Positions 1,276-29,705 are shown, numbered from the stretch's first letter. The stretch: DNA of 61,263 nucleotides from a virus (IMGVR_UViG_3300032722_000020:1-61263), one strand, 5' to 3'. Notes: a model not told the origin generated them from the sequence alone. Made by a program: numbers and translations.

Positions 1276-1890
1276 ATGAAGTTCAACAAATTCATTATCG
1301 GTCTGTTTGCGGTTGGCGCGTTGCTCACCGCAAGCGCGCAGCAGTTCCCAGCGCAAACCCAACGCACCCTCGTTTTGTCCGCTCTGCAAACCATGAGCGG
1401 CGCGGCGGTCGGTGTCGTCACCAACGGGCCGCAGGACAAAATCGGCGCGATTGGTCAAGGCTACATTGACATCTTTTCGCTGACGAACGCCAGCGGAAAC
1501 ATCGAGACGGCGCAGATTTACACCTCGCCCGATCAGACGAACCTGACGGCACTGGCGAATTACGCGCTTATCACTTCGCCGACGACCATCAACGTCACCA
1601 ATTTCCTGTATGGTGGCACGAATGGCCTGACTTGCGCGAATCTATCGCTCCTGCCCGGCACTATCACTACGCCGACATCCGCGACCGCAGGCTACGCCAC
1701 GCCGTATCTGGCTGAATTGCCGTTCACTAATACCGGGGCAATCACCATCACGGCCAAGGGGACATATCGCGTGATTATCAACAACATTCAGGACGCCAAC
1801 CGTTATTTCTACATCATCTATACGCCCAGTGGCACGGCGACGAACATCACGGTCGGGGCAAATCTGACGTTCCCGATTATGCGCCAGTAA
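1276..1890 (+). CDS. Signal-peptide-bearing Thr/Asn-rich protein at the capsid-decoration gene position
   Basis: N-terminus MKFNKFIIGLFAVGALLTASA|QQ; 6 N-x-S/T sequons; directly downstream of the capsid gene. Confidence 0.7.
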   Translation: MKFNKFIIGLFAVGALLTASAQQFPAQTQRTLVLSALQTMSGAAVGVVTNGPQDKIGAIGQGYIDIFSLTNASGNIETAQIYTSPDQTNLTALANYALITSPTTINVTNFLYGGTNGLTCANLSLLPGTITTPTSATAGYATPYLAELPFTNTGAITITAKGTYRVIINNIQDANRYFYIIYTPSGTATNITVGANLTFPIMRQ

Positions 1891-1926
1891 TGGCATCTGC
1901 GATTTAACCACAAACAAAATACCACC

Positions 1927-2349
1927 ATGAAATATATTTGCACAAATCCGTTTCCGAATCCGCCCGGCAAGCCAATCGTCATCGCCGACATCAAGGATGA
2001 ATCCGGCAAGACGACCGTGAAGCAGTCGCATATCACCGTGGACGGCAAGGAAGCCAAGGAACACGTCCACAAGGGCGCAATTTTCAACATCGGCACGGCC
2101 AGCACTTTTAGCGACCTATCGCCGGCTGAAAAAACCTTGGTGGCGCAACTGGTCGTGAGCAAGAAAATCGCCGAAGCCACTCCGCAGACCGTGGAACGCA
2201 TCAACAAGGAAGTCGCCGCCGAGAGATTGGTTTTGGAGCGCGATGCCGCCCGCGATGCGAAAGCCGATCCGATGGCTCCGCTGCGTGAAATTCTGGCCGC
2301 GCTCGCCGAACAGAACGCCGCGATTTTGGCCGCTGTGTCCAAGAAGTAA
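1927..2349 (+). CDS. Hypothetical head-module protein (position of lambda FI-like packaging chaperone)
   Basis: 140-aa ORF with AT-rich initiation region, helical C-terminus, followed by a terminator. Function assigned by position only. Confidence 0.55.
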   Translation: MKYICTNPFPNPPGKPIVIADIKDESGKTTVKQSHITVDGKEAKEHVHKGAIFNIGTASTFSDLSPAEKTLVAQLVVSKKIAEATPQTVERINKEVAAERLVLERDAARDAKADPMAPLREILAALAEQNAAILAAVSKK

Positions 2350-2491: not shown

Positions 2492-2818
2492 TTAATAACG
2501 CGACCGCGTTTCAACGGCGTCCATTTCCTTCGCCAGCAACGATTCGACCCAATCCGGCACATTTCCCCCCCCCGCGCACCGAAGTTGGCTAACCACGGCT
2601 TGCGTTTCAGCCCGTAGCGCGCGTTTTACAAATTCCGAGAAATCTTCCCCCCGATTCCATTCAATTCTACGCACGGCACGTTTATAAAATCCCACAAGGC
2701 TCAATGGCAGGCCATCGGCGCGTTGTGAGTTACGCGCAGCCCATTTCCATAGCTTGATTGGTTCAGGTATTGGAAGCTGGTAGTGAACCACGCCTGATTT
2801 TGAACGGTGATCTTTCAT
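2492..2818 (-). CDS. Hypothetical protein
   Basis: 108-aa ORF at the distal end of the minus-strand island. Confidence 0.45.
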   Translation of the reverse strand: MKDHRSKSGVVHYQLPIPEPIKLWKWAARNSQRADGLPLSLVGFYKRAVRRIEWNRGEDFSEFVKRALRAETQAVVSQLRCAGGGNVPDWVESLLAKEMDAVETRSRY

Positions 2819-2942
2819 AATTTCAATTCTCCGTTATCCGCCTCGTTCGGCTTCATCGCGGCGAACGTCTCCGCAAAGTTGTATTTGCGGCGGTGGCTCT
2901 TCGGAACCGGCACGTTGGACTGAATGGTGAAGGAGACTTTTT

Positions 2943-3317
2943 TCATAAACAAAACTCCGGTTGCCGCTCCGCGACCGGAGCCTTGTTACGCCGAAGAAAC
3001 TCCTTGGCGAGCGCGTAGCTTGCCAGCCGATACTGCCAGACAACACGGCTCTTGGATTCTGGCTTCTTCGATCTGCGCCAGTGCTCGGTCATCGTGAGTA
3101 GTCCGCGCAGTTTTAGTGGTAGCCACACGTTACCGATTAAATTCTTGTCCTCTGGGCGCACGAAGCTCAAGTCCACTTCGTCCGTGAAATGTGCGCCGTC
3201 GTTCTCAACAAAGAATTTCACCACGGCCACGGCGATTGCTAAAAGCTGCGGTGATTTCCAGAGCCATTGTTGCTGCGATGCGTCGGCTAAAACTTCGGTG
3301 GTGGTTCGGTCAGACAT
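2943..3317 (-). CDS. Hypothetical protein (possible winged-helix)
   Basis: 124-aa ORF with AAAAAT-ATG start context. Confidence 0.6.
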   Translation of the reverse strand: MSDRTTTEVLADASQQQWLWKSPQLLAIAVAVVKFFVENDGAHFTDEVDLSFVRPEDKNLIGNVWLPLKLRGLLTMTEHWRRSKKPESKSRVVWQYRLASYALAKEFLRRNKAPVAERQPEFCL

Positions 3318-3386
3318 ATTTTTATTTTATTTCGCAGCCATAATTACATGGCCGGTCGAGGTAACGGGCTGGTTTGGTGATTTGTT

Positions 3387-3917
3387 TCATATTAAATAAT
3401 CTTGCGTGTTGGCTTCATTACCCCACGTCATCCACCCTGAACGTGGCCGGCGCGCGAACATTTCTAGCTTTGGCGTGGCAGTTGAAACCCGCTCGATGGC
3501 GGCATAGGCTGCGTCCGGTTTCGCGGAATGTTCCCCACGCGGCGCGATGATGACGGATGGCACGTTGCGAACGGGCGGCAACATGGTTTTCCCACGCACG
3601 CCGAACAAACAAAGTTCGTGTTGTCCGCGCAAATACTGGCCTATTCCAAAGCGGTCTTTGACCCACACAAGATTTGTGACATAGCGAAAACCAAGTTTTA
3701 CCATAATGTCCAAGCCGAGCGGTAATCGGTTATTAGTCACCCAAAGCCACAAATGGCAATCGTCGGCTGGATTCCAGACCGGCGCATTTCGGATTACTTC
3801 AATCATGTCCTTGTCCTTCACGACGGAGTAATGACGCTGCGCGCCACGACATATCTTCCCCCCCCCTGTCTCTGCCCACGGCGGATCGGCGGCGATGACT
3901 TTGAACGGTTCGCTCAC
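3387..3917 (-). CDS. MT-A70 family DNA adenine methyltransferase
   Basis: VIAADPPW, HLWLWVTN, YLRGQHELCLFG, EHSAKP, LEMFAR, GWMTWGNE. GTG start overlaps the upstream stop. Confidence 0.93.
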   Translation of the reverse strand: MSEPFKVIAADPPWAETGGGKICRGAQRHYSVVKDKDMIEVIRNAPVWNPADDCHLWLWVTNNRLPLGLDIMVKLGFRYVTNLVWVKDRFGIGQYLRGQHELCLFGVRGKTMLPPVRNVPSVIIAPRGEHSAKPDAAYAAIERVSTATPKLEMFARRPRSGWMTWGNEANTQDYLI

Positions 3918-4090
3918 GGCTTTTCCCCCTCTGGCTTGAAGCCCCACCGCTTTGCGGCGGATGCCAGCCCCGCCTTGCGATATTGTTCAGGCGTGCGGCG
4001 TTTGGTCGGGCCGGTTGTTTTCCCCCCCTTGCTGCCCATGTAGGCGAACACGGCGGAGATTTGAGACTTTGTTGGCTTGTGTGTTTTCAT
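3914..4090 (-). CDS. Small basic KGG-motif protein (58 aa, absent from ORF track)
   Basis: MKTHKPTKSQISAVFAYMGSKGGKTTGPTKRRTPEQYRKAGLASAAKRW. Confidence 0.65.
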   Translation of the reverse strand: MKTHKPTKSQISAVFAYMGSKGGKTTGPTKRRTPEQYRKAGLASAAKRWGFKPEGEKP

Positions 4091-4118
4091 TGGTTTAATT
4101 TTGGTTGGTGGTTTATGG

Positions 4119-4370
4119 TTATTCGCGTAAAAGTTTTACCGTCACCGGCCCTTCGCGGAAGTTCGGGCTGGTAATTGTGCCGTCCACAAAAGCCTTTTCT
4201 TTTTCAGTTAAGTTTTTCCACTTGGCAATCAAGATGCCCTTGCCGCGAATCAGCGCGACCGGCAAATCTCCGCAAAGCGATCCGGCAGAGTAACCGCGCG
4301 ATGCGACAAAAGATTGCGCGGAATACAATGCGGCGAATGTTCCTTTTTCTGTAAATTCAATGGTTTGCAT
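4119..4370 (-). CDS. Hypothetical phage protein
   Basis: 83-aa ORF in a tightly packed minus-strand operon. Confidence 0.7.
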   Translation of the reverse strand: MQTIEFTEKGTFAALYSAQSFVASRGYSAGSLCGDLPVALIRGKGILIAKWKNLTEKEKAFVDGTITSPNFREGPVTVKLLRE

Positions 4371-4383
4371 AGTTCAATTATTT

Positions 4384-4809
4384 TCAGATTTCCCCCCCGC
4401 TTTCCATCGGCAGCGCGTCCCAATACTCGGCGAACAATTCCGGCATGACTTCTTCCAAAGCGCGGCAGGCTTGGCGGAATGTCACCGGCTCGCGCTTGCC
4501 CGCCCCGTTGCATTGTTCCTGCACCAAGAGCGCAGCCGTGTAAGCGTTCGCCCAGATTCCCCCCGTCGTCCCCCGCCTGTGTTCGGCTTGCTGCTGCCAA
4601 TAGTCTGCCCAAGTCTTTGCCAATTTCCCCAAGCGGCCAGACTCGTAACCGGCGCGGATGGCTTTGGCCGCGCTTGCTGGCGTGTGGTGGAATGATTTCA
4701 CGATTGCACCTCGCTTCCAGTTGTGGACATCGCCAAAGGCAAGGCGAATGTGGTTAAACTCCGTCTTGAAATCGGCGAATTGCTTTTGCAGTTTCTTGGA
4801 TGCTTTCAT
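4384..4809 (-). CDS. Hypothetical protein
   Basis: 141-aa ORF in the operon. Confidence 0.65.
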   Translation of the reverse strand: MKASKKLQKQFADFKTEFNHIRLAFGDVHNWKRGAIVKSFHHTPASAAKAIRAGYESGRLGKLAKTWADYWQQQAEHRRGTTGGIWANAYTAALLVQEQCNGAGKREPVTFRQACRALEEVMPELFAEYWDALPMESGGEI

Positions 4810-4812
4810 AAC

Positions 4813-5256
4813 TCACTTCCCCCCTTTCGCGGTGGCGATGATGGAGCGGACAGCGATTTGAGCCGCTTCAACATTTTTGCGCGAAGCTGTGTTGCCGCTT
4901 TCCCCAAACATTTCCAAAACGGTGACTTCGCGGTCAAGACTTTCCAAAGCCGCCAGCAATTCCAAGCCAGCATCGCGCAATTCCGCATCGTCGCACCATT
5001 CCGCCGAATTGTAGCAAACCACATTCAGCGCCATTTTGCACAGGCACAACGCTTCTTCGCGCTCCTGTCTGGCGTCATTCAGAGCCATTTTGCAAAGTTT
5101 TTTGCCGTCGTCGTCACCGCAAAGGGCAATCGCCGTTTCAAGATACTCTGCTCCGGTGGCGTAGTCCCCACCATCGAGGCAAGCAATCGCGTGTTTTAGA
5201 TTTGGCAGGAACCGTTTTGATTTGAACTTTTTGTCTTTTGTCGTTTTCATTTTCAT
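4813..5256 (-). CDS. Hypothetical protein
   Basis: 147-aa ORF with internal repeat LCKMALN x2. Confidence 0.65.
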   Translation of the reverse strand: MKMKTTKDKKFKSKRFLPNLKHAIACLDGGDYATGAEYLETAIALCGDDDGKKLCKMALNDARQEREEALCLCKMALNVVCYNSAEWCDDAELRDAGLELLAALESLDREVTVLEMFGESGNTASRKNVEAAQIAVRSIIATAKGGK

Positions 5257-5366
5257 TCTTTCGTTTTTGGCCTAACAAGGCCGGTTTGTTTTTTGCGTCT
5301 TGAATCCCTAACGCTTTTTTTGTTAATTCCCCAAATTCTAACGATTTTAGTTTGTCCTTAATGGTT

Positions 5367-6320
5367 TTACTGATTGACCAGCCATTCGCGGCACAATACC
5401 GGCTGGCGAATTTTCCCCGAATACGTTAATCCCATGCCGGCGATCCGCACCACCGACCCCACGCGGATTCTGTCAATCGCTCCGCCGCCGAATTTGCACG
5501 CACCCCGCGCCTCTCCGGTGACGGCATCGCAGATTTGCGCGCTTTGGGTTCCACCGGTGGCGGTCACACGGCAAACGTAGATTGATTCAACCTTATGGCA
5601 AAGCATAGAACCCCACGTATCACCCCAGCCGTGCGCGCAGACGCCTTCAAAGTTTCCGGACATCATGCACGCCTCAATAATTTCCGGAGCGATGACATCT
5701 GCTATGACTAAAGCACCGTCGCGAGGTTCGCGGCACAGTGTCGCGCAAAGCTCGTTCCAGCGCGTCCGGGTGGATTCGGTCAGCATATTGCGCCCGTTCA
5801 ATTCTAAGAGCGTAAAGGCGGCAAAGAACGAGCCATGCCGCTCAATCCGTTGGCGGTCGTCATTGGTCAGGAACGCGCCAGATTTAGCGCGCACCAACTC
5901 CCCAAGCAAAACGGCATTCCCCACGCGCCTTGTGGACAGTTCGCCGTCATATTTGCGTTGAATGAGGTAATCAACCGGCGACCAGCCGCGCGCCTCGGCT
6001 AGTGTAACCAGATGTTTGCGCGGATGCGGCAGCACCTCGGCGAGCTTGGCAGCATCGCCGCCGAAGGGCACGCCGCTCGTTTCTTCCGTGTAACCCTTGG
6101 CGGTTTTCTCGCGGACAAGCGCGGCGAAAATCTTTTCCGCCTCGGCAAGAGACACCGGCACGCGGGTTTTAGTCCCCTCGGCCAACTTTGCCCCACGCTT
6201 TCCGAATTGAAACTCTACGCGGTAGGCTTTCCCGCCGCCGTCCACGTCCACGACCTGCGCGAAATAAACCTTGTCGCTGTTGGTGGCAGAATCCCGGTAA
6301 AATAGTTTGATTGTTTTCAT
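5367..6320 (-). CDS. WGR-domain protein fused to a divergent ATP-dependent DNA ligase-like domain
   Basis: N-terminal NSDKVY..FQFGKRG..EKTAKGY (WGR). Ligase motif I QRKYDGE, FEGVCAH, and C-terminal GKIRQPV. Confidence 0.75.
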   Translation of the reverse strand: MKTIKLFYRDSATNSDKVYFAQVVDVDGGGKAYRVEFQFGKRGAKLAEGTKTRVPVSLAEAEKIFAALVREKTAKGYTEETSGVPFGGDAAKLAEVLPHPRKHLVTLAEARGWSPVDYLIQRKYDGELSTRRVGNAVLLGELVRAKSGAFLTNDDRQRIERHGSFFAAFTLLELNGRNMLTESTRTRWNELCATLCREPRDGALVIADVIAPEIIEACMMSGNFEGVCAHGWGDTWGSMLCHKVESIYVCRVTATGGTQSAQICDAVTGEARGACKFGGGAIDRIRVGSVVRIAGMGLTYSGKIRQPVLCREWLVNQ

Positions 6321-6329
6321 TGCTTCTTA

Positions 6330-6358
6330 AATATACCAAGCGGCTTGCGTTTCGTCAA
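6330..6358 (-). promoter_or_regulatory. Sigma70-like promoter with palindromic operator CAAGCGGCTTG
   Basis: Minus strand TTGACG-N17-TATATT; operator at 6337-6347. Confidence 0.75.
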
Positions 6359-6371
6359 AGGATATTTTTGC

Positions 6372-9800: not shown

Positions 9801-9857
9801 ATTTTTTTATCTCTACCGGAAACCGCCGGCACGGGTTAATTTTTCAGTGACAATTCA

Positions 9858-16122: not shown

Positions 16123-16539
16123 ATGAAAAAAACACTTATTTTTTGTGCCTGCCTGCTGTCAATTTCGGCGCAGGCCGGGCTTACTGTCGTCAACACGCTT
16201 AACCCGACCACACTGGCCGGAACACCATCGGTGCTGGTGACTAATAATTCGTCGCCGGTCATCGTCGGGTATGCCAGTTTCCGGTTTAGCCCGAATTTTG
16301 TCATCAATCAAGGTGGGTTGAATAACACGAACAGCTTTGTGAACTACACCAAGTTGAGTTTTGACACCAACGCGGATTTCGGGGTGGTGGTTTCAACAAA
16401 CCTTTTTTCGACCACCAATGCGTCTGCGCTCACTGTTCCGGCTCCGACCAGCCAGACAATTCCTATTTACGGATGGACGCAGACCGTGGTTTCAAACAGC
16501 ACCGTGGTCTGGCAACAGGTCGTCACCCAGACTCCGTGA
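16123..16539 (+). CDS. Signal-peptide-bearing Asn/Thr-rich beta protein
   Basis: MKKTLIFCACLLSISAQA|G; 6 sequons in 138 aa. Confidence 0.75.
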   Translation: MKKTLIFCACLLSISAQAGLTVVNTLNPTTLAGTPSVLVTNNSSPVIVGYASFRFSPNFVINQGGLNNTNSFVNYTKLSFDTNADFGVVVSTNLFSTTNASALTVPAPTSQTIPIYGWTQTVVSNSTVVWQQVVTQTP

Positions 16540-16563: not shown

Positions 16564-16941
16564 ATGAAGACATTTTTTATCGCGCTTTTTTCCTTGGTGG
16601 CCGTTTCCGTGGTTACTGCGGCTCCGGTTCTGGTCGGCGGCTCGCCGTTGGTGGTCAATAACACGTCATCGAACTGCGCGGCGGCAACCAGTTTTGCCTC
16701 GCCGCCGGCAATCCAGAATTTTAGCGTCCAGCACGGCGCATTAAACAGCACGAACGACATCACGCTTTCCGTTTCCAACACGCTCGACGGTGTGAACTAC
16801 GTTTATGCCTACACCTGGCATCCGGCCAACACGAACGCCACCACGGAATATATCAATCCGTTTCAGTTCACCAACAATCTGACGCGGGCGACCGTCACCA
16901 CCACAAATTCGCAATCAGTTATCATCAATTTTGGAAACTAA
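16564..16941 (+). CDS. Signal-peptide-bearing Asn/Thr-rich beta protein, probable paralog of the preceding gene
   Basis: MKTFFIALFSLVAVSVVTA|A; 6 sequons; NFSVQHGALNSTN resembles NFVINQGGLNNTN. Confidence 0.75.
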   Translation: MKTFFIALFSLVAVSVVTAAPVLVGGSPLVVNNTSSNCAAATSFASPPAIQNFSVQHGALNSTNDITLSVSNTLDGVNYVYAYTWHPANTNATTEYINPFQFTNNLTRATVTTTNSQSVIINFGN

Positions 16942-17224: not shown

Positions 17225-17713
17225 ATGATACCTGAAATTCTTGTCGGCCAAGCCGTGTTGCACGGCATTCAGAATGACGGCACGCAGATTGGCGTGAGTC
17301 CCTACGCCACGTTCGTTTTGAACAAAATTGGCGGAGCGCACCAATTTGAAATGAAGTCGCTAAAGGACGAAACCGACTTTACCGCCGCGATGATTGCCGT
17401 GGACGAAGGCAACGAGATTGACATTGACCTGACGATTTCAGCCGGCACATCCGGCACGCGCGCGGCAGCGGCGGCTCTGGCCGTCTATCCTTCGCCGCTC
17501 CAATCCATCACGCTTTCTCACCTGAAAACGCAGGGGACGTTCGCCAGTTCCGGCAATACGAGCGTGAAGCTGTTTGATGGGCTGTTTTCCTACATCGGCG
17601 GCGCGAAGATTGACATGAGCCAGTCCGATTTTGTGAAGCTGACCGGCATGAAACTCAAGAAATGGGCGAACGCCGAGCAAAACACCAGTCTCAATACGGT
17701 GGTTTCTGGCTAA
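17225..17713 (+). CDS. Putative tail tube (major tail) protein
   Basis: 162 aa, beta-rich, followed by a terminator, then chaperone-like and tape-measure genes. Confidence 0.6.
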   Translation: MIPEILVGQAVLHGIQNDGTQIGVSPYATFVLNKIGGAHQFEMKSLKDETDFTAAMIAVDEGNEIDIDLTISAGTSGTRAAAAALAVYPSPLQSITLSHLKTQGTFASSGNTSVKLFDGLFSYIGGAKIDMSQSDFVKLTGMKLKKWANAEQNTSLNTVVSG

Positions 17714-17772: not shown

Positions 17773-18489
17773 ATGCACGAACAAATTTTAGCGCAGGCGG
17801 TGATGCCAACCCCATACCGGATCATGGGGCTGGACATGATGCCGTATTCGCTTGGCAACGAGCTACAACTGTTCCGCGAAGGCTCGCCGTTTCTTTTGCT
17901 CGACCGGAAGAAGTTCAATGCGCTCGGATTTGAAAAACAATGCCTCGCCGTGATTCGCGGGGTGAATGTGTGCTGCCGACAATCGCCGCGCTGGTTCAAA
18001 TTCTGGGGCTGGCTATATCGCCCGCGCACGGCGGAGGAATTGGCCTTGATTGTGGCGGATTTTCGGAATTATTTGAACGATGGACGGCTGCAATTCCGTG
18101 CCGACTTGCCGCAGTCGGACGAGGGTGGAGGACGCTATCTGGGCGAGCCGGAAATCTTGCGGCTCTATCGGTTTGTCTGCGCGCACATCCCGGTTGAAGA
18201 ACGGCAGATTTGGGGTAAGACGGCGTGGGATTTCCCGTATTCCTTTGCCAAGATGCTTTCGCAGGGACACGCGGAGAGCAATGGCTGTCTCGAAATCTAC
18301 AACATCCAGAAAAAGGCGCACGACGACTATCACACGCAATGTCAGGAAGGCCGCGATGCGTGGACGGCGGCAGGCTTGGACATCGCCAAGCGGATCGCCG
18401 CGCTGAAAAACTATCCCATCATCCGCGAACTTGCGGGCTTGGAAGAAGAAGTTGCCAACTTTGAAAAGGAAATCGTATGCCCGGCTTAA
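17773..18489 (+). CDS. Putative tail assembly chaperone
   Basis: Position between tube and tape measure; AWDFP motif near the C-terminus. Confidence 0.5.
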   Translation: MHEQILAQAVMPTPYRIMGLDMMPYSLGNELQLFREGSPFLLLDRKKFNALGFEKQCLAVIRGVNVCCRQSPRWFKFWGWLYRPRTAEELALIVADFRNYLNDGRLQFRADLPQSDEGGGRYLGEPEILRLYRFVCAHIPVEERQIWGKTAWDFPYSFAKMLSQGHAESNGCLEIYNIQKKAHDDYHTQCQEGRDAWTAAGLDIAKRIAALKNYPIIRELAGLEEEVANFEKEIVCPA

Positions 18490-20765
18490 TTGTCACCCTT
18501 GGCGGCAGCAGCACGCCCTATGAGCAAATGCTGGCGCGCAGCGTCACGCAAGCGAAGGCGGCTGGCGTCGCAATTCAGCGGGAATATGAGCGGACACAGG
18601 CGATTATCGGACGGCGCATTTCTCCAATTCAGAGCATGGAAGCGATGAATCCGGCTTCCACGCTCATCAACAAGCAGGCAATCACTTCCGCCGAGCAGGA
18701 TTATGTGGCGTTCTGGGAAACGACGCTCGCCGCGAAGGCGGCGGCGGACGCGGAGCAGGTAGCCATGAATCAGGCGAAGTTGGAAACCATCGTGGCGCAA
18801 GAGAAGGCGGCGGGCGTGGAATACGAAAGCGACCGAGCCGCGCAACTGGCCGCCGAGGACATTCTTTATCACGAAGAAGTCGCCGCGAAGGCGGCGGCGG
18901 ACACTCAAAAATCACTCTACAACGCGATTGCGCTGGCTAAGATTGAAAAACAGGAAGCTGATGCCCTTGCTGCAAAAAAACTGATGGACGAGGAAATGGT
19001 GGCATCCAACCGGGCTGCAAATCTCGCCATGCTCGCCGATTCCGCCAAGGGCAACTTCGGACAAGGCATTCACGGCACTGGCGCGGGCGGCGGCATTTCA
19101 GGCATCATGCGGGAAACGCTGGTCATTTTTCGTGAAATCGGTCGCGGTAACATGACGCGCGTGCCCGGCTCGCTGCTTTTGTTGCTTCAATACACCGGGA
19201 TGTTGAACCTGATGATGAAGGGCGAGAAAACGGAAGCGTTACTCGCGGCGGCAGCGCAGGAAAAACTCGCCAAAAGCACGGCACGGGCGGCGCTGGCGGC
19301 GGAAGCCAAGGTTCGCGCCGCCAAGATTGCCGCCGGGATGGATGTCCGCAGCCCAGAGCTTCAAACTGCGGAAGCAGAGGCGGCAGACGCCACCGCCGCC
19401 GCACAGGCGCGGCGGGCAGAGGCTACCACCGTGGCTGCAAACTCTGATGCGCTTTCAAAAGAAGCCGCCATCGCAAACGTTACGGCACTTGAAGCCGAGC
19501 GTGACGCCGCCATCAAAGATGGTGTTGCACAAACCTTACGGGCGCGCGAAACCGCCGCCGCCGCCGCCACAATTCAAGCGTCTGCCGCAACCACAATCTC
19601 CGCGATTGGATTGATGCTCTTGCCCATCGCTTTGTTGGTTGCTGGAATTGTGGCGTGGTATATCGCCATCGATCATTTGATTTCGATTCTGCACGCAAAA
19701 AGAGAGGAATTGGAATATGCGATGGAGGCGCAGGACAGATACTCAATGTCTTTGGCTGAACAAATTTCAGCCGAGGAGCGTTTGGCAGAGGCGATTGACA
19801 AGACAACCGACGCCCTGCGGAAAATGAACGAGGCTAAAAACCAGTCGGTTGAAATTACGCAGGATGCCATTGAAGCGGCCAATGCCGAGGCCGACGCGCG
19901 AGCAAAACTTTACGAAGCCGCCACGAAGGGGAAACTTCTGGACATCGAAATTGCGGAAAAGACCGGAAGAATAACGCACGCGGAAGCGGTAAAACAAAAA
20001 GCGGCGGTGGAATCGCAGGCGGTGGCTGACAAGGCGGCGGCGCAGCAAAAAAAGCTGGATAATGAAGCCTCCATAGCCAATGCCGCTGCAAAAAAAGCCG
20101 CTGCCGACAAAACCGCCGCGCAAGCCGCGTTTCAGGCACAGAGTGACGCCAATAATAAAAGCCCGGAAGCTCTTGACCGCAAAAAAAAGCTGGAAGAAGC
20201 GGAGAAAATCAAAAAAACGGCGGCGGAAGATGCTGCCGACGCCAGAAAGGAAATTGCCAAGGCGGTTGGCAGCGGCGCGAAAAAGAAAGACATTGACGCG
20301 CTTAAAAATGAAGAGCGCGCGGCGGAAGATGCCGAAAAGAATGCGGAAAAACTGATTGTAAAATTAAAGGCCGCGATGAAGCCTGGCGAGATCGCCCAAG
20401 AAAACGCGCAGCGTGTGGCGGAAGAAGCTACAAGTGCCGCCACCGCCCTTGCCGAAAAAGCCAAAAAAGCGACAACTGCCGCCACTACCAATGCCGCCAA
20501 TTCGCCCGCCGAAGTTGCGGCAGAGCAGGCAAACATTGCCAAGCAAGCGGCATTAGACGAAGCCGAAGAACCGGAAAAAAAGGCGGGCGGATTCAGATCT
20601 GCGAACAATGTCACCGAGCGCGAGCGCATCGGCCTTGGCGCGGCGTCGAGCGTTCAGGTGTCCATCTTGGACTTCACCAAGAAAATTGAGGAACACACGC
20701 GCGATTCCAAGGCGGTGTTGAACTTCATCCACACCCACATGAAAGAAAACGAAGGGAGCTTTTAA
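18477..20765 (+). CDS. Tape measure protein
   Basis: 762 aa, Ala/Glu/Lys-rich helical, central hydrophobic segment, canonical position. Confidence 0.8.
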   Translation: MPGLIVTLGGSSTPYEQMLARSVTQAKAAGVAIQREYERTQAIIGRRISPIQSMEAMNPASTLINKQAITSAEQDYVAFWETTLAAKAAADAEQVAMNQAKLETIVAQEKAAGVEYESDRAAQLAAEDILYHEEVAAKAAADTQKSLYNAIALAKIEKQEADALAAKKLMDEEMVASNRAANLAMLADSAKGNFGQGIHGTGAGGGISGIMRETLVIFREIGRGNMTRVPGSLLLLLQYTGMLNLMMKGEKTEALLAAAAQEKLAKSTARAALAAEAKVRAAKIAAGMDVRSPELQTAEAEAADATAAAQARRAEATTVAANSDALSKEAAIANVTALEAERDAAIKDGVAQTLRARETAAAAATIQASAATTISAIGLMLLPIALLVAGIVAWYIAIDHLISILHAKREELEYAMEAQDRYSMSLAEQISAEERLAEAIDKTTDALRKMNEAKNQSVEITQDAIEAANAEADARAKLYEAATKGKLLDIEIAEKTGRITHAEAVKQKAAVESQAVADKAAAQQKKLDNEASIANAAAKKAAADKTAAQAAFQAQSDANNKSPEALDRKKKLEEAEKIKKTAAEDAADARKEIAKAVGSGAKKKDIDALKNEERAAEDAEKNAEKLIVKLKAAMKPGEIAQENAQRVAEEATSAATALAEKAKKATTAATTNAANSPAEVAAEQANIAKQAALDEAEEPEKKAGGFRSANNVTERERIGLGAASSVQVSILDFTKKIEEHTRDSKAVLNFIHTHMKENEGSF

Positions 20766-20767
20766 TT

Positions 20768-21727: not shown

Positions 21728-22236
21728 AAACTTTTATCCCCAAAAAACCGGTTGGCGATTCCGCGCTGTGGACGTGGCGACGTTGGATTTGGGATTTACT
21801 GGCCGGCGGCAATTTTCCTATCAAGGGCGACGGAAATGTAATCGTCCAATGGCAGCAGGGCGTTTATCGCATTAGTTCAAAACCGATGCCAAACGGCACC
21901 TACACATTCCCTTGGCAATCGCCGAAAGAACTTGATCCCACCGTGGCAGTCAGCAAAGACACCTTTGTTTATATCTCGCCGTTGAATCCGCTGGTGACGA
22001 CTGGCTTGACGGATATTGACTTGGGCGTGCCGGTGAAGGCGTTGCCGGGCATCTGGCAGGCCGCGCAGGATGTTCCAGCGCAGACTTCCGACACGCCGCC
22101 GCAATACAACGTGCCGCAAATTCCTTATCCGGGCGGTGGCAGCGCACCGGTCGGAACGCCGTTGAAAGGCGACCTCGACGGCACGGGAGTTTATTGGATT
22201 CTTTGGTCGCAAGCCCCGATCTGCCCCAACGTCTAA
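21724..22236 (+). CDS. Putative tail tip protein
   Basis: Translationally coupled (GTGA overlap); Pro-rich. Confidence 0.5.
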   Translation: MKTFIPKKPVGDSALWTWRRWIWDLLAGGNFPIKGDGNVIVQWQQGVYRISSKPMPNGTYTFPWQSPKELDPTVAVSKDTFVYISPLNPLVTTGLTDIDLGVPVKALPGIWQAAQDVPAQTSDTPPQYNVPQIPYPGGGSAPVGTPLKGDLDGTGVYWILWSQAPICPNV

Positions 22237-22242
22237 ACTTTT

Positions 22243-22554
22243 ATGTCACAACTCACCTACTACAAATGCGAAGGCTGCGGAGAGATTATCTCTGCCGCAG
22301 ATAACACATGGACTCGCCACCTCGGCTCTTTTTCCGGTATGCCTTCTTTGGCAGCCCCATCGCCGTTTCCGCAAGCGGCAGTTAATGGCGTGCGTCCGGT
22401 CACGATTGACCTGTGCGCCAATTGCGCGGGCAAGACCACGGTGGCGCAACTGGTCGCGATTACGACGGCTTTGACACCCAAATCTGCTACCGTTTCCGCC
22501 AAGCCAGCTAACGCGCCAATAGCTGCACCAACCGTTGCCACCGCCGTCAAGTAA
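22243..22554 (+). CDS. Small Zn-binding protein
   Basis: CEGC ... DLCANC. Confidence 0.6.
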   Translation: MSQLTYYKCEGCGEIISAADNTWTRHLGSFSGMPSLAAPSPFPQAAVNGVRPVTIDLCANCAGKTTVAQLVAITTALTPKSATVSAKPANAPIAAPTVATAVK

Positions 22555-22560
22555 TCGCCT

Positions 22561-25500
22561 ATGAGCGTCGGGGGCGATACCAGACCGTTCCGCGAGAAAT
22601 ATCCGGGCTACGCCACGGTGTTTCCCGGCACGCTTGCGTCCCACTACAAACAAGTTCTTGGCACGGTAAAGAAAAACACCACGCAGCCGAATCAGACCGA
22701 CGCCACGCGGAGTCATTACGGCGAGATTGGTTATTGGGGAATGTTGGCTGGCGAAAGCGGCACAGGCTGTCCCGCCTCGGTTAATTTCTTCACTGATTCC
22801 AACAATTTTCTCGACCCGAATACCGGAAAATCCACGACGCCAGCCGCGCTCCGGTATGTCTATAATTGCGGCAACTGCTACAACGGCATTACCGACCCGA
22901 TACGGTTGCAAGACAACGCCAATACTTTTTCGGCGTGCGATGCGCTGCTGGCGGTGACGGTGACGAATGGCGGCACAGGTTACACTGATGGCGACGTGCT
23001 GACGATTACCGGCGCATATCCAGAGACGATTAACGGGGTGGCGCAAGTGGCGACGTTCCGGCTCAAGGTGACGGCGGGCGTGATTCAAAGTGCCACGGTG
23101 CTTACGGCGGGCTGTTATTCTGGAATTGGTGCAAATGCGCTGACGGCGCAGACCACGGCGACGGGCGGCACCGGCACTGGCGCGACGTTCACTTTCACGC
23201 GCAAGGATGCTCAATACGACTTTGGCCGGTGCAACATTGTTGGTTGGGCGGCAGCGGCAGCGGCGCGGCAATGGCACGGCACTTACGGTTTTCTTGATGC
23301 GTGCTACACCTGCCCAACGGACAACACGCAGGGAAATCCGCCGCAGACGAAGTATCTAAAGATAACTTTCGATGATTGCGAAAATCTTGACCTTACGGGA
23401 TTTGATGTAACAACCGTTCCATTGAGTTTGCCGTCTGACGACACCGGAAATGGTGGAACAGAAAATGGAGGCATAGTATTTGTCAATTCATCGCAATCTT
23501 TTTCTGGTAGTAATTCCGTTAATGAAAATAGTGGGGTTATAAGTTATGGGGTTGAAACTTATTCGCTTTCAGACAGAACGGACATTATTTGTAAGAATGG
23601 GATTCAGCTTTGGTATGATAGCCCACCAAATGTTGACGGCACATTTAAGCTGGATGGTAGTGGAAATACAGTGGCTGGCGATGGTTCCGATTCTCCGAAT
23701 TATCCTAATCCTTTTTGCAATACATATGTAAACTCTTCCAGTTGGGAGGTATATGCTGATGGAGTTTTGATTGATTCTGGAACAACAACTCCGTCTCTGG
23801 ATGCTGCTGATTATGACAACTATCAAAAAGAACATCCCGACTCAAACATCCTAGTTTCAATTCAAATAAGCAATTACACGCTAAACAACACTTATTTTGA
23901 ATGGAGTGAACTGAATTGCTATTATATGGCTTATGCTCCAGCAGATGATTTAAAGCCGTCTAGGTGGTCTGAATGCGACAACAGAATTTCCAAGGGCACC
24001 ATCACCCTTTCCGAACCGAATACGCCAACCGATGTCATTGCGGATTCAAACGAAAATCTCCTTTCTCCGTGGGTGTTGGTTGACCCTGTGCTGATGCCGC
24101 TGACGACGCAGCCTTTCGACGGCACGGTGGTCAAAGTTTCGCGGAATGAAGTTGGCACGAATGTCTCGCCAGCGAATTATGTGCCGCTGTGGATTGCGGG
24201 CGTTCCTCTCGTTGGTGGATTGCCACAAGTCTATGTTGACCCCAACCTCGCCGCGCTGACCGCTGGCGGCTTGACCGCAGGGCAAATTCTAGGCTTGCCG
24301 CTGGATAAAACCATTGGCGGCGATTACCCGCTGGATTATTTCATGCCGGATTACATTCGCTATATCTGCGAAGATTGTTCCGGTGGTGGAACTTCATCTT
24401 GGGACGAATACACTATTGGCGATTGGCGTAGTAACCACGCAAATTTGCCACCTCGCGCAACGCAGTGGACAAACACGCAAGAAGCGTTATTCATCAATAC
24501 TGGCCGAAAGCAATTTATCGGGGGTTGGGTTGGAACGGAAACCGGCGACGACAACATTTGCACGACCAACGCATCGGATAAAATCTGGTCAACCAAATGG
24601 ATTGAAACGAGCGTGCGCTTGCCGAGCGTGAATCATGCACGGCCATTTGGTCTTGACCGTTACACGCTCGATGCCACCAAACGGGCGTGTGTGGATTCCT
24701 TTGACGGCACTACCTTGACGACGCTGGGCAGTGAACCAACCTTTACCGCTGGCGATTTTCTGGCTTGCGTCGGCACGGACGCAGACGGGCTTTATACCTT
24801 CGACAGCATGAGTGGCACGGATTATTTGCTCACCTTTGTCAGCGCATTGCCCGACAACTTCCCGCCGTTGCCAACTGGCGACGTGAACGGGATTGTTGCC
24901 AAGATAAATTGGGATCATGTCCCTCCGATGGCCGGACGGTTACACATCATTTCCATTGCCGATAACGGTGACGGCACGGTGACGGTGACGAGTGACCCCA
25001 TGCCGGTGTTGAATAAGGCCGATACGTTGAATCCGCTTTACAACGTGGATTTGAGCGACAAGACGATGACTCCGCTCGCCAAAAATCTGGTTCCGGCGGC
25101 GGAAATTCCTGATAGCAACGGCAACCTGCCCGGTTCGACATCTAGCACGCCCGGCCAGAAACCGCTGGGTGCGCCGGTGGATTACATACCCACGCCGTTG
25201 ACCACCAGCGAGTTTATTTGCACCGCCGATTACGCCACGGTCAAAGATGCCGTGTGGCTGACGCTTTACGGCGCGATCCCAACCGCCGATACCAGCCCCG
25301 CGCCACCGGCAGAAGTCGCGCCGTGGTATTGGAATGATGACAAAGGCAAGGGCAACTATTGGATTGGTCAATGGTTTTACGAGAATCAGGTTTATTCTGA
25401 TGCCGTTGCGGTGGAATATCAGAAGGGCTTTGTCTATTGCTCGCCTTACGCCATTGTGATTTCGCCCAACGCCACTGACACGCCAACCGGCGTCAATTAC

Positions 25501-25899
25501 GCGGGCGTGCGCTATGATTTCTCGACGCCGTTTATCGCCGATGAGTTTTGCGCGTCGGCGCGCTGGATGGACGTTTGCCAGATGATGACTTACCCATATT
25601 GGAAAACTCCGCTTTGCTGTCCGTCGGTGAGTTCGCATCCGGCCAATTCCTATCCTTACGTTGAAGCGAGATTAATCATGCCGGGAGCGCACGCCCAGCC
25701 CGACAACGGCGCGGGCATGACGCAAACCGAGTCAGCCCCTTCCGGCGGCAACCACATCAATTACACGGTGGATTTGTCGGCGGCAACCGGACTGGGCAGC
25801 ACGCCACCGATTGCCAACACCATATTCAGCCAACCGGCTTGCGTGCTTGCGCCAACGGGTGTTTATATCGCGCAACCGGATACCTACTGCTCGCCGTGA
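22561..25899 (+). CDS. Large Cys/Thr/Gly-rich tail or receptor-binding protein
   Basis: 1112 aa; VTNGGTGYTDGDVLTI / GGTGTGATF motifs typical of virion fibres; many CxxC. Confidence 0.7.
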   Translation: MSVGGDTRPFREKYPGYATVFPGTLASHYKQVLGTVKKNTTQPNQTDATRSHYGEIGYWGMLAGESGTGCPASVNFFTDSNNFLDPNTGKSTTPAALRYVYNCGNCYNGITDPIRLQDNANTFSACDALLAVTVTNGGTGYTDGDVLTITGAYPETINGVAQVATFRLKVTAGVIQSATVLTAGCYSGIGANALTAQTTATGGTGTGATFTFTRKDAQYDFGRCNIVGWAAAAAARQWHGTYGFLDACYTCPTDNTQGNPPQTKYLKITFDDCENLDLTGFDVTTVPLSLPSDDTGNGGTENGGIVFVNSSQSFSGSNSVNENSGVISYGVETYSLSDRTDIICKNGIQLWYDSPPNVDGTFKLDGSGNTVAGDGSDSPNYPNPFCNTYVNSSSWEVYADGVLIDSGTTTPSLDAADYDNYQKEHPDSNILVSIQISNYTLNNTYFEWSELNCYYMAYAPADDLKPSRWSECDNRISKGTITLSEPNTPTDVIADSNENLLSPWVLVDPVLMPLTTQPFDGTVVKVSRNEVGTNVSPANYVPLWIAGVPLVGGLPQVYVDPNLAALTAGGLTAGQILGLPLDKTIGGDYPLDYFMPDYIRYICEDCSGGGTSSWDEYTIGDWRSNHANLPPRATQWTNTQEALFINTGRKQFIGGWVGTETGDDNICTTNASDKIWSTKWIETSVRLPSVNHARPFGLDRYTLDATKRACVDSFDGTTLTTLGSEPTFTAGDFLACVGTDADGLYTFDSMSGTDYLLTFVSALPDNFPPLPTGDVNGIVAKINWDHVPPMAGRLHIISIADNGDGTVTVTSDPMPVLNKADTLNPLYNVDLSDKTMTPLAKNLVPAAEIPDSNGNLPGSTSSTPGQKPLGAPVDYIPTPLTTSEFICTADYATVKDAVWLTLYGAIPTADTSPAPPAEVAPWYWNDDKGKGNYWIGQWFYENQVYSDAVAVEYQKGFVYCSPYAIVISPNATDTPTGVNYAGVRYDFSTPFIADEFCASARWMDVCQMMTYPYWKTPLCCPSVSSHPANSYPYVEARLIMPGAHAQPDNGAGMTQTESAPSGGNHINYTVDLSAATGLGSTPPIANTIFSQPACVLAPTGVYIAQPDTYCSP

Positions 25900-26135: not shown

Positions 26136-26156
26136 AATTGACTTGCAGTGTCTAGT

Positions 26157-29100
26157 GTGAGACTACGCTATTTCTTTGCCCTCGTCGTCCTAGCCTTCAC
26201 CGCACAGGCAGGGACGGTCACGCCGACTTGGAATTTTCAAGATTATACCGGCGGCGCATACGGTTACAATTCCATCACTATTCAGCCGATGCTGCCCGTT
26301 TCGACCGACGGCGCGCAATACTACTTTGTTGGTGATCCGATTACGAAAAACACATCCGGCGGCAGCTTTACCACGAATCTTTTGAACGGGTATGCCTACA
26401 AAGTGACGTTTGCGGGTAGGTTCTCAAATTACTCGTTGACGAATTACTTTGGCACGAACGTAACCGGATCGGTAAATGCCGCCACCTACACCGCCGTTTC
26501 GACGAATATCACTACTGGATTGTATGCTTACAGCATGGCGGCCGCCGATGCTCGGTTTGCCTATGTCCTTATTGAAGGCACAAACAATTCGCTGGCGAAC
26601 GGCGTGCTGACGGTCAAAACGAATTATTCCAGCGGTGGAGGATCGGGTGATGCGCTGGTTGCTGGCTACGGCTTAAGCCTGACGAACATCGGCGGCACGA
26701 ACAACTTGAGCGTCCAGACAAACTTCTTTGACCTGTATGGCGACTGGTTCAAGGCTGTCACCTACCTAGCCACCACCGGCACAGTGTATCACGCGCAAAA
26801 TTCCGACAACGCGACGATGGCGACCTACGCGACCGGCAGCGGCAGCGCGGCGAGCTACACTGGATCGGTCAACTACAATCAGGTGACGAATCCGCCCGCC
26901 ATACCTTCAACCAACGGCTTTGTAACGGCGACAGTGACGAATGGCTTGGCGAGTATTGGTTACGTCAATAGTGTCAGTAACGTTCTAGCCGCTTCGATTC
27001 CATCAACGAATGGATTTGTGACCGCAGCCATCACCAACGGATTAGCTACCACCGGCTATGTCGCTCAAGCGACGAGCGGGATGGTGACGAACTTACCACC
27101 GTCAAACGGCAGCAATGACCAAGCCTTGTTGAGTGCTGCGGTTTCAGTTCCCAATCGCGTGATTATTCTGTCGCCGCAAACGACCTACTACGCCTCAAAC
27201 TTGTTTATCACCAACCACATTTTCCTCGACCTAAACGGCTCGACCATCGCCATGATGAGCGGCGCGACCAACGCGCTCATTGATACCGGCGACAACAATA
27301 GTGACCAATCCGTTGTCAATGGCACGCTCGACGGCGGGAATACGGGAGATTTCGTTTATGGTTCAACCATTCCGATGCCGATAAATCATCCAGTGTTTCC
27401 GGGCTATGGCAGTTCCATGAGCAATCGTTTTGGCCTGACGTGGAACGCCTCGGCGGGCGGTCAAATCTCGCACCTGTTTATCAAGGGATTCAACGGCATC
27501 GGTCTGGCGGTTCGTTGCTGGCGCGGCACCGAGTCCATGAAATACACCAATTCGACGATTGATAACGTCACCGTGTTCAACAACTTCGCGGGCGTCGTGG
27601 ATAGCGGATACGGCTTCCAATACTACTACAACCAGTTCACTCACGATCCCAATTCTTACGCCTACGACTCCGGCGAATACATCAATTTTCAAGGCTTAAC
27701 TGCCAAGCAAAACGGCATCGGCTTGGCGATTGGCGCGGGCAACGACCGCATCACCGGCGCAATGGTGACAGACAACTACATCGGCATGATTGCTGACGGC
27801 GGGCCAAATGCGGCGCATGGAATATTTTCGGACGTGACGATGAACCACAATGTTTATCCCTTCGCGTTTGCCGGTGCAGGCGAGATTCGTTTCACCGATT
27901 CTTATTTGCAAGTCAACACCTACGCCGGACAGGTTACTTCGGCTTCGGCTTTGGATTTCATTTCATCGGCGATACTTACGGGAATTGTTGTCACGAACAA
28001 AACAGGCGAACCCAATCCTCCGAACCTTGGTATCTATTCCTGTTCCATTGGCGATACCATTACCAACTTGGTGTCAGTGCCCGCGCCGAACGGGACGTGC
28101 TACTTTTACGGGAACCACTACTCGGCATCGGGAGCCATATCGGATGGCACTGATACCAACGGTTGCGGCAAGATTACTTCTGCGGGCGTCACTTATGCGG
28201 GTGGTGGCACCAGCCTGAATACCAACACAGTGGCAGGAATTGTGAGCAATACGGTGACGACGAGCTATGTCGCTGGACTCGGTTATCCAAATCCCACAAA
28301 CTTCAATCATGTGGTTGTTTCAAACAACGCATATTCCGGTGGGGTTACAATGGGAAGTATTTTTGTTAGTAGTTCGCTTTCGAGCAATTACGCGGTTATC
28401 GGAATGGCGTCCGATGGAATGACTCCGATATTTAAGGGCTACAACTTTTCCAGCAACCAAATTTCTCAATGTTACGTTTCCGGTGTTCCACTTGTCTTAA
28501 ATCCAGATAGTTCGCCTGTTGGTGTTGGAAAACTAAATCCGACCAACACGCTGGACGTCGGTGGCACCATCGGCGACCAATACGGACAGTTGCCGCCGTC
28601 AAATTTAATCCAAACCAACTCCAACCAATTCACTTCATGGACGATTGGAAACAACTTGGACGGCGGGATGTTCACGAATCTCACGGCTGGCAACATCGTC
28701 GGGACGGTAGCGAACGCAAATTATGCCAACCAAGCCGGAAACGCTTACTCCGCTGGCATCGCTAACCGAGCGGCTTTTGCTGTAATCGCCACCAACGCGC
28801 CGGATGGCAACGCGATTGCCAGCTTGAACGCCGCGACGAACATTGCCAATGCTGCGGTTGCGCCCTACACCAACCAAGTCACGACAGCGGCAATCACTAA
28901 CGCCAACGGTTTGACCACCAACAGCACGCTCAACGCCGCGCTGATTTCTGGTATTCTACCAATGGGGACTTTGACCACTGACACCGTGACCACCAACGGC
29001 GTGCTTTACTACAAGAACGCGACCACACGCGGCATCACCAACGCCCCGACGCTGAACCTTGCCAACTCGACGAACTACACCGGCGCAATCGCTTTGAGCC

Positions 29101-29705
29101 AGTTGCCTAGTCAGGTCTTGACCAACGGCGCGGCCTATCAGCCGACCAACGCGAACCTGACCACGCTGGCGACCTTGAACGGCAACTCGCTAACGAACAT
29201 TAATCCGGCCAACATCGCTTCCGGCAACCTGCCCAGCACCGTTACCAACACCGCGCCGATTGCCGCGACGAATGTCACTGGAACCATTTCTGCGACGAAT
29301 GTTCAAAACACTTATCAAGTAGTCAGTATCTATAATTATTCTGGCCTCAATGCGGGTCAAAACTTCTTTGCCACAGGGCCAGCCACGGCAGCCTCGTATC
29401 TCTATTGCCAGATGCCCGCCGGATTCACCGGAATCATCACCAATCTAACCATCGGCGAGCTTTATCCGCCGCTTGGTGTTGGGACTAATTTAGTTTGCTA
29501 CTTCTACACCAACGGCGTCAGTTGCTCAAACTCCTACTCTTTTACCTACGTTGGGGGAACGACCTATCCAAACGTCCAGATGTCCACCAACGGTTCGTTG
29601 ACCATCGCCAGCCCGACCGATTTGGTTTCGCTTGTGATATTTTCGTCTAATAGCACTCCGGCAATTCGCACGACAATCACTTGGAGGCAGCAAATCAAAC
29701 CATGA
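26157..29705 (+). CDS. Signal-peptide-bearing tailspike/adhesin-like protein with parallel beta-helix region
   Basis: RLRYFFALVVLAFTAQA|G; NDQALLSAA..LDLNGSTI..NGTLDGGN (pectate-lyase-like entry); STNGFVTA repeats; about 30 sequons. Confidence 0.75.
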   Translation: MRLRYFFALVVLAFTAQAGTVTPTWNFQDYTGGAYGYNSITIQPMLPVSTDGAQYYFVGDPITKNTSGGSFTTNLLNGYAYKVTFAGRFSNYSLTNYFGTNVTGSVNAATYTAVSTNITTGLYAYSMAAADARFAYVLIEGTNNSLANGVLTVKTNYSSGGGSGDALVAGYGLSLTNIGGTNNLSVQTNFFDLYGDWFKAVTYLATTGTVYHAQNSDNATMATYATGSGSAASYTGSVNYNQVTNPPAIPSTNGFVTATVTNGLASIGYVNSVSNVLAASIPSTNGFVTAAITNGLATTGYVAQATSGMVTNLPPSNGSNDQALLSAAVSVPNRVIILSPQTTYYASNLFITNHIFLDLNGSTIAMMSGATNALIDTGDNNSDQSVVNGTLDGGNTGDFVYGSTIPMPINHPVFPGYGSSMSNRFGLTWNASAGGQISHLFIKGFNGIGLAVRCWRGTESMKYTNSTIDNVTVFNNFAGVVDSGYGFQYYYNQFTHDPNSYAYDSGEYINFQGLTAKQNGIGLAIGAGNDRITGAMVTDNYIGMIADGGPNAAHGIFSDVTMNHNVYPFAFAGAGEIRFTDSYLQVNTYAGQVTSASALDFISSAILTGIVVTNKTGEPNPPNLGIYSCSIGDTITNLVSVPAPNGTCYFYGNHYSASGAISDGTDTNGCGKITSAGVTYAGGGTSLNTNTVAGIVSNTVTTSYVAGLGYPNPTNFNHVVVSNNAYSGGVTMGSIFVSSSLSSNYAVIGMASDGMTPIFKGYNFSSNQISQCYVSGVPLVLNPDSSPVGVGKLNPTNTLDVGGTIGDQYGQLPPSNLIQTNSNQFTSWTIGNNLDGGMFTNLTAGNIVGTVANANYANQAGNAYSAGIANRAAFAVIATNAPDGNAIASLNAATNIANAAVAPYTNQVTTAAITNANGLTTNSTLNAALISGILPMGTLTTDTVTTNGVLYYKNATTRGITNAPTLNLANSTNYTGAIALSQLPSQVLTNGAAYQPTNANLTTLATLNGNSLTNINPANIASGNLPSTVTNTAPIAATNVTGTISATNVQNTYQVVSIYNYSGLNAGQNFFATGPATAASYLYCQMPAGFTGIITNLTIGELYPPLGVGTNLVCYFYTNGVSCSNSYSFTYVGGTTYPNVQMSTNGSLTIASPTDLVSLVIFSSNSTPAIRTTITWRQQIKP

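Follow-up and report, generated by a model that had tools for sequence, protein, structure and literature searches.

Secretion-type leaders on capsid-adjacent, tail-module and fibre-like proteins of a temperate tailed phage: candidates for virion parts that mature in the periplasm

Introduction

Tailed phages assemble in the cytoplasm, and the locus described here raises the question of why genes of a virion module should encode proteins with export signals. The window (the whole IMG/VR virus record IMGVR_UViG_3300032722_000020, 61,263 bp, CheckV completeness 83%) represents the nearly complete genome, ~60.6 kb, of a temperate tailed phage found in lake water. Four of its late genes, g1276 (1276..1890), g16123 (16123..16539), g16564 (16564..16941) and g26148 (26148..29705), all on the plus strand, start with sequences that resemble Sec signal peptides. 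A sequence-only reading of this DNA had proposed that their products are exported, possibly N-glycosylated by the host at numerous N-x-S/T sites (sequons), and bound to the particles at lysis as a virion decoration. We describe here that g1276 belongs to a widespread family of capsid-adjacent proteins, predicted to be jelly rolls, in which a putative secretion signal following the Q-rule of Bacteroidota (glutamine, Gln, at position +1 after the cut) is conserved, and we weigh where such exported proteins would act.

Results and Discussion

Predicted leaders and their conservation

Leaders were called by a rule-based heuristic applied to the sequence in a six-frame scan of open reading frames (ORFs), which asks for a basic n-region, an uncharged hydrophobic core of at least 8 residues and small residues at positions −3 and −1. 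In the translations of the four named genes (4/4), a basic n-region and an uncharged hydrophobic core lead up to an A-x-A-like site: MKFNKFIIGLFAVGALLTASA/QQ in g1276 (signal peptide residues 1-21, predicted cut ASA/QQ), MKKTLIFCACLLSISA/QA/G in g16123, MKTFFIALFSLVAVSVVTA/AP in g16564 and ...RLRYFFALVVLAFTAQA/G in g26148, which starts at 26148 or 26157, both GTG (slashes mark predicted cuts). The scan flagged 20 ORFs, and six of the eight top scores (≥4.3) belong to these four genes and to two further ones, g30473 (30473..31099, alternative start 30452, plus strand; 208 amino acids (aa), leader VHA/QTNQ), downstream of the fibre gene, and g48607 (48607..49290, plus strand); the remaining two are antisense ORFs. 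A looser form of the rule, used on the protein families below, flags 9 of the 42 curated genes of the window, about three of them falsely, which corresponds to about 3 of the 36 leaderless genes. Neither a lipobox nor a C-terminal domain of the type IX secretion system (T9SS) was found in the leader-bearing proteins of the window. Asn, Ser and Thr together make up 28-37% of the four proteins, and charged residues 4.0-6.9%, versus 10.7-30.6% in 17 other phage proteins. The Sec signal peptides that the sequence-only reading had seen on four genes are thus borne out by the translations and the heuristic, and two further genes carry them.

The g1276 profile was searched against 1.84 billion cluster representatives, and at least 258 clusters were retrieved at E ≤ 0.001 (153 at E ≤ 1e-30), nearly all of them of 190-230 aa. 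Among the best 150 of the 258 representatives, 143 have a leader-like N-terminus by the lenient rule and 121 have Gln directly after the A-x-A-like site, while the seven that the rule does not flag are mostly short at the N-terminus. This signal is far above background, since the lenient rule wrongly flags about three genes of the window. On related contigs, the leader of the g1276 relatives ends in A-x-A in 7/7 cases (alignment A2) and is mostly followed by Gln; within the family, the property of having a leader is kept and the core sequence drifts. A leader is also present in 7/7 members of the g16564 family and in 8/9 of the g16123 family, the ninth being short at the N-terminus, and the N-termini of the fibre-like relatives (P0006, P0007, a 554-aa protein of G003 and a 753-aa protein of L004) are all leader-like. 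The proposal that the proteins are exported gains support from this, as relatives in all four families retain a leader and Gln stands at +1 in the family of g1276.

Excerpts of Bochtler 2018 (PMC5837995) describe a "Q-rule" for Bacteroidetes, with a mean of 71% Gln at +1, and give mostly <9% for Chlorobi and 77% for Ignavibacterium. Among the proteins of the phage clade, 14/26 have Gln at +1 by script, and two more by eye; the g16564 subfamily departs from the rule (0/8). A preference for Gln at exactly this position argues that signal peptidase I truly cuts there, and we consider it the strongest argument for true export, which appears well supported, with translocation, cleavage and pyroglutamate formation predicted from the leader type. 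The same leader type points to a Bacteroidota-like host, and the scarcity of Shine-Dalgarno-like motifs agrees (before 4/41 genes, versus 5.4% at random positions). A-rich runs precede many gene starts in the window, and both traits fit a Bacteroidota-like translation style. Judged from these sequence features, the host is probably a member of the Bacteroidota, and Gln at +1 could serve as a cheap host-phylum marker for uncultured phages.

A capsid-adjacent jelly-roll family

The HK97-type major capsid domain is encoded directly upstream of g1276, at 3..1232 on the plus strand (PF05065, E = 6e-16; phrog_617, E = 3e-36), which confirms the position after the capsid gene that had been read for g1276. 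In 19/19 loci, a capsid gene lies 30-149 nt upstream of the g1276 homologue on the same strand, and in 15/19 a g1927-like gene lies directly downstream; because several contigs are near-duplicates, the 19 loci correspond to ~10 sequence types. In the window this conserved partner, g1927 (1927..2349, plus strand), encodes a leaderless protein of 140 aa with 27% charged residues, with no match in Pfam or PHROGs. Such a gene order is the behaviour of a core module.

The AlphaFold2 model of g1276, built from 139 sequences (pLDDT 91, pTM 0.81), has a helix at residues 4-21, corresponding to the leader, followed by a beta-sandwich. It replaced an earlier model from 7 sequences (pLDDT 50), which gave no fold match at E ≤ 0.001. 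Foldseek searches of the PDB retrieved viral jelly-roll capsid proteins (E ~1e-5, TM ~0.25), and searches of BFVD retrieved small phage proteins that are uncharacterised, among which a 115-aa protein of Pseudomonas phage PPpW-3 matched best in structure by target coverage (target-normalised TM 0.80). This protein, ORF7, is leaderless, is encoded two genes after a 'major capsid protein and peptidase' fusion, and scores 22.7 bits against the g1276-family profile, in a match that covers both hallmark motifs of the family (T-x-T-L-Q-S-x-D-x-T-N-W and R-Y/F-x-R-V). Homologues of ORF7 follow the capsid gene in cultured phages whose capsid protein matches that of the window (Xanthomonas phages FoX and Murka, Serratia phage MQ-4, Enterobacter phage Arya, Ralstonia phage phiRSP and Synechococcus phage S-CBS1), and the homologue in Murka (gp0009) is annotated as 'minor capsid protein'. 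Among PDB sequences, the family profile matched best to 8cjz_B, named 'Capsid Decoration Protein', in which the same two motifs align collinearly at a sub-threshold E = 0.077; no paper on 8CJZ was found in the literature.

Like g1276, 8cjz_B, PPpW-3 ORF7 and Murka gp0009 adjoin a homologous capsid gene, and the first two have the two hallmark motifs in the same order as the g1276 family. However, their link to g1276 is weak by sequence, and these proteins are leaderless and have 115-130 aa, whereas in g1276 a leader of 21 residues, Gln at +1 and ~60 extra residues are present. Prediction of a complex between the capsid domain (residues 125-409) and mature g1276 (residues 22-204) gave no answer (score 0.00) and is evidence neither way. 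Because position, fold and motifs converge, even if every single link is weak, the most likely identity of g1276 is that of a leader-bearing counterpart to a small jelly-roll protein associated with the capsid, which would be expected to bind the outside of the mature capsid; we regard g1276 as a candidate exported homologue of capsid-decoration proteins. Of the virion decoration that had been proposed, the resemblance therefore stands for g1276, with its capsid adjacency, its jelly-roll fold and a weak two-motif match to a decoration protein, while the binding to particles at lysis would be a further step. What is new here is a widespread capsid-adjacent family, with a predicted jelly-roll fold, that carries what appears to be a conserved Q-rule secretion signal.

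Tail-module and fibre-like proteins

Both g16123 (138 aa) and g16564 (125 aa) encode N/S/T-rich proteins that are predicted to be exported, and they are weak paralogues of each other (BLASTP E = 7e-5). The start of g16123 follows the stop of the gene before it by 2 nt, and there is an overlap between g16564 and the gene that comes after it. In relatives, one or two genes of this type are retained directly in front of that of a 155-162-aa protein, which precedes the long presumed tape measure, and a g16564 relative is also present on a 100-kb metagenome contig. Two Cys residues, found in 5/7 members of the g16564 family, would fit a disulfide outside the cytoplasm. The two proteins appear to be small beta-rich accessory proteins of the tail module. 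A paralogous relation between the g16564 and g1276 families was considered and dropped, the profile comparison giving an insufficient probability of 30%. We also observed the motif TTGACTTT at 14433, 15238 and 16543 on the plus strand, ~15-20 nt 5' of the late starts 14454, 15259 and 16564; it has 6 matches genome-wide versus 2.9 expected, no significant excess.

The presumed tail genes (14454-25899) have no match in Pfam or PHROGs, and since no tail gene matched a family, 'tail tube' and 'tape measure' are labels by gene order only. The place before the tail tube that had been read for g16123 and g16564 is accordingly a presumed one. These labels are given to a protein encoded at 17225..17713 (plus strand), with no family or PDB match, and to a 762-aa protein with 27% charged residues encoded at 18477..20765 (plus strand), in the latter case also in view of its size and composition. 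A leaderless large tail protein of 1112 aa, g22561 (22561..25899, plus strand), has no family match and could be the central fibre or tip. NCBIfam likewise gave no match for the four leader-bearing proteins or the tail genes, nor did Pfam and PHROGs for the four; PDB sequence searches with P0004, g22561, g17225, g20768 and profile A3 gave nothing usable, and tblastn searches of GenBank phages with P0004, P0001 and P0003 gave no match.

The fourth protein, g26148 (1185 aa), is predicted to be exported and resembles a tail fibre or tailspike by its mosaic build. Its residues 104-267 (75% identity) and 663-1061 (61%) recur in P0006, from which it departs in the middle and at the tip; with P0007, whose C-terminal end is a GDSL esterase domain, it has shorter modules in common. 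Such mosaicism is the pattern of fibres and tailspikes, as far as these alignments indicate, and the fibre position that had been read for this gene is plausible. No match to g26148 was found in Pfam, PHROG, NCBIfam or the PDB, and scans of viral contigs for fibre relatives found none; its neighbours in a protein language model belong to tailspike and pectate-lyase clusters (0.76-0.82), which we take as a lead only. No segment near its N-terminus is common to the relatives. Further downstream, at 31387..31917 on the plus strand, lies a leaderless protein of the DUF1353 or 'tail assembly chaperone'-like type (PF07087, E = 5e-11; phrog_1158, E = 2e-13).

Sequons and the glycosylation question

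The possibility that the host attaches N-glycans to the many N-x-S/T sites of the exported proteins started from counts that are real: where 6, 6, 6 and about 30 sequons had been counted by hand in g1276, g16123, g16564 and g26148, a recount gave 6, 6, 6 and 29. Nevertheless, in 2000 shuffles per protein the excess over composition was not significant in any of them (z = 1.95, 1.71, 1.61 and 0.44; p = 0.06, 0.08, 0.10 and 0.36, in the same order), with no enrichment at all in the fibre, and the density of sequons follows from a composition that is rich in Asn, Thr and Ser and poor in charge. The extended PglB sequon D/E-x-N-x-S/T occurs 0, 0, 0 and 1 times in the four proteins. The g1276 family (139 members) has 3.35 sequons observed versus 3.20 expected, and the number per protein ranges from 0 to 8 among the best 150 representatives. 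Six Asn positions are 85-99% conserved in this family, but the sequon there is kept in 4-53% and Ser/Thr at +2 is not conserved, so these Asn residues seem to be structural. The two small families are ~1.5-fold over shuffles (4.71 versus 2.91 and 5.44 versus 3.67), and the g16123 relatives have retained several of the sequon positions; this excess is not independent evidence, because the members are close relatives.

No glycosyltransferase was found in the 49 phage ORFs scanned with Pfam. The O-glycosylation motif of Bacteroidota is D-[ST]-[AILVMT], and it is not enriched in the g1276 family either (0.45 versus 0.65). A host of the Bacteroidota-like type lies outside the lineages known for PglB. 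Host N-glycosylation thus finds no backing in the sequon statistics, in the extended motifs or in the leader type, and we consider it very improbable.

Where would the exported proteins act?

Our preferred explanation is that the leader-bearing parts are exported and cut, fold in the periplasm, and join the particles when lysis merges the compartments, a sequence of events to which we give a little less than an even chance. The products of at least five genes of the late structural block (g1276, g16123, g16564, g26148 and g30473) would be translocated by the host Sec system and cut by signal peptidase I; most relatives would then expose an N-terminal Gln, as the secreted proteins of Bacteroidota do. 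In the periplasm, the exported proteins would gain a pyroglutamate N-terminus and fold. DNA-filled heads and tails, assembled in the cytoplasm, would meet them only at lysis, and the exported proteins would bind as add-ons, to serve as capsid decoration, tail accessory and side fibre. Known phages add decoration proteins and side fibres late, which makes an addition at lysis mechanistically feasible. By this account, the Sec leader would belong, as an integral and conserved element, to a capsid protein family that counts at least 258 clusters. The wider proposal, namely that in a large clade of phages, whose hosts are probably Bacteroidota, the virion is put together in two compartments, with decoration, tail accessories and side fibre joining at lysis, is slightly more tentative still. 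We found no paper describing or proposing periplasmic maturation of virion parts of tailed phages. If the proposal were true, part of the particle would mature in the periplasm and be added at lysis, contrary to the all-cytoplasmic assembly of textbooks. It would bear on the annotation of structural proteomes, where leader-bearing genes are usually dismissed as non-structural, on the way to express Bacteroidota phage fibres in host-range studies, and on the stability of particles in the environment, e.g., via pyroglutamate N-termini or disulfides.

A parallel is offered by Cellulophaga phage phi18:3 (NC_021794), whose host belongs to the Bacteroidota. Its proteins gp085, gp086 and gp087 are annotated in the record as virion structural, structural and tail protein 'based on experimental MS/MS' (tandem mass spectrometry, MS), and their N-termini (MKNKITIIMILMSISFGYS/Q, ...GVSA/Q and ...GLNA/Q) have a Sec-type leader followed by Gln; the three proteins are rich in N/S/T (25-31%), as the window proteins are. 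The record annotation is silent on leaders. These proteins have no sequence similarity to those of the window, and their content of charged residues is higher (15-20%). The proposal is directly testable in cultured Cellulophaga phages.

The same leaders could also belong to proteins that are exported and never join the particle, acting instead on the envelope of the infected or lysogenic cell, by masking or destroying a receptor, excluding superinfecting phages, shielding the progeny from debris, or remodelling the surface or vesicles. Export is well supported and the phage is temperate, as deduced from its integrase (PF00589), both of which suit such a role, and the central beta-helix-like enzyme module of g26148 (a lead only) could act as a free depolymerase. 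Exported proteins encoded among late structural genes exist in lambda (Lom and Bor), T5 (Llp) and phi80/N15 (Cor). They belong to the outer-membrane proteins or lipoproteins, are variable among relatives and lack homology to virion parts, whereas the leader-bearing proteins of the window have no lipobox or T9SS C-terminal domain and show strict gene order and fibre- or decoration-like homology. In excerpts of a study of Porphyromonas gingivalis phages (Nixviridae), five genes whose function is unknown and that carry Q-rule leaders are read as modifiers of the host outer membrane (PMC10367356); as here, the predicted leaders expose Gln, in adaptation to the Sec pathway of Bacteroidota, but those genes, as far as these excerpts go, are not placed among head or tail modules, unlike the ones of the window. 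A 'moron' gene would be patchily present with a promoter and terminator of its own, whereas here the gene order is conserved, g1276 is fixed next to the capsid gene in every locus with g1927 following in most, and g16123 and g16564 are embedded in an operon through coupling and overlap. Promoter- and terminator-like sites are not in excess at 14-32 kb, in a scan with a sigma-70 model that may not fit the host. Considering also that g1276 resembles capsid-associated proteins and that the leader-bearing proteins of phi18:3 are annotated from virion MS, we find a role confined to the envelope, the main rival reading, rather unlikely.

Alternatively, the N-termini might be no export signals at all, but segments removed by a prohead protease, membrane tethers or assembly helices of proteins that assemble in the cytoplasm. 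Cytoplasmic assembly is the rule in tailed phages, this phage has a protease fused to its capsid protein, and the leaderless chaperone-like protein encoded at 31387 lies near the fibre gene. In P. gingivalis phages, predicted leaders on major capsid proteins were suggested to be cut by prohead proteases, according to the same excerpts (PMC10367356). Yet the Gln at +1 in most of the best g1276-family representatives fits the signal peptidase I/glutaminyl cyclase pathway of the host and no prohead protease, leaders of this type are also found on tail and fibre proteins, which at no stage enter the prohead, and the low charge (4-7%) and the two Cys of the g16564 family fit extracytoplasmic proteins. 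We consider this alternative improbable.

Several points weigh against a periplasmic maturation of virion parts. The leader calls depend on our own heuristic, and the presence of the leader-bearing proteins in the particle is, like export itself, its timing, particle binding and the identity of the host, something that we infer. As regards g1276, the TM of the PDB fold matches is low, the sequence link to a decoration protein stays below threshold, and although structure prediction gave a jelly roll with a good BFVD match, 8cjz is absent among the PDB fold matches listed for the model. The MS detection of the phi18:3 proteins could reflect co-purified envelope material. Known fibres dock via their N-terminus, where g26148 has a leader and then a variable beta-rich domain, and no tail-docking module was found in this protein. 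The leaderless g22561 could suffice for host recognition, and if the DUF1353 chaperone encoded near the fibre gene serves g26148, both would be cytoplasmic. The sole match to a genome contig is an 11-kb contig of a metagenome-assembled genome labelled Patescibacteria, and the Bacteroidota promoter motif TAnnTTTG shows no excess and is uninformative (34 occurrences versus 30.4 expected). We set the Patescibacteria-labelled contig aside as a host clue, as it is probably a binning artefact.

Genome record and other features of the window

The ends of the record overlap, as 60635-61261 and 3-629 encode the same stretch of the capsid fusion with 98% aa identity, and the phage genome of ~60.6 kb is therefore essentially complete; the record seems to be a genome, either circularly closed or with terminal redundancy, whose assembly includes some strain variation. 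The public sequencing runs that contain the DNA of the window are labelled as lake or freshwater metagenomes, and no RNA dataset is among those listed. Matches to family libraries identify a large terminase of the lambda gpA type (53630-55822) and a portal (56695-58629), followed by the N-terminal part of a protease-scaffold-major capsid fusion (58994..61261, plus strand; phrog_617, phrog_4523), which runs on into 3-1232. The closest cultured relatives of capsid and portal have ≤33% identity. RecT is present as well as the tyrosine integrase.

The sixth leader-bearing protein, g48607, has sub-threshold matches to transglycosylase/Rpf-like proteins (E = 0.008 and 0.037), and no clear endolysin was found elsewhere in the window. 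Signal-peptide and signal-anchor-release (SAR) endolysins are late phage proteins that reach the periplasm via the host Sec system before lysis, and they are lysis enzymes, not parts of the particle. g48607 may be one of them; by its matches, it may be a cell-wall enzyme exported via Sec. In a 96%-complete relative (G003, locus L019), a lipoprotein-like protein with the leader ...ALAFTG/C is encoded at 6634-7083 on the minus strand, beside further small leader-bearing proteins and downstream of the fibre gene; possible identities are a spanin and an exclusion lipoprotein.

A 12-kb minus-strand block (2492-14472) lies between the head and tail genes. It encodes an MT-A70 methylase, a WGR-domain protein, a 1142-aa protein with LPD29, methyltransferase and DUF4942 domains, and a 963-aa beta-clamp fusion with a long C-terminal extension. 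Two near-identical 69-aa ORFs at 12866-13075 and 13444-13653, both on the minus strand and both starting with MKYSIDYYKTKNITPDERN, point to a local duplication, with a 96-aa ORF (13114-13404) between them. An IS1595-family transposase (PF12762, PF12760) is encoded at 32627-33475 on the minus strand, beside a stretch of low GC content (44%, 34-36 kb). In three of the related loci (L005, L006 and L009), the first ORFs, upstream of the terminase region, contain long Gly-Arg dipeptide repeats (GRGRGR...).

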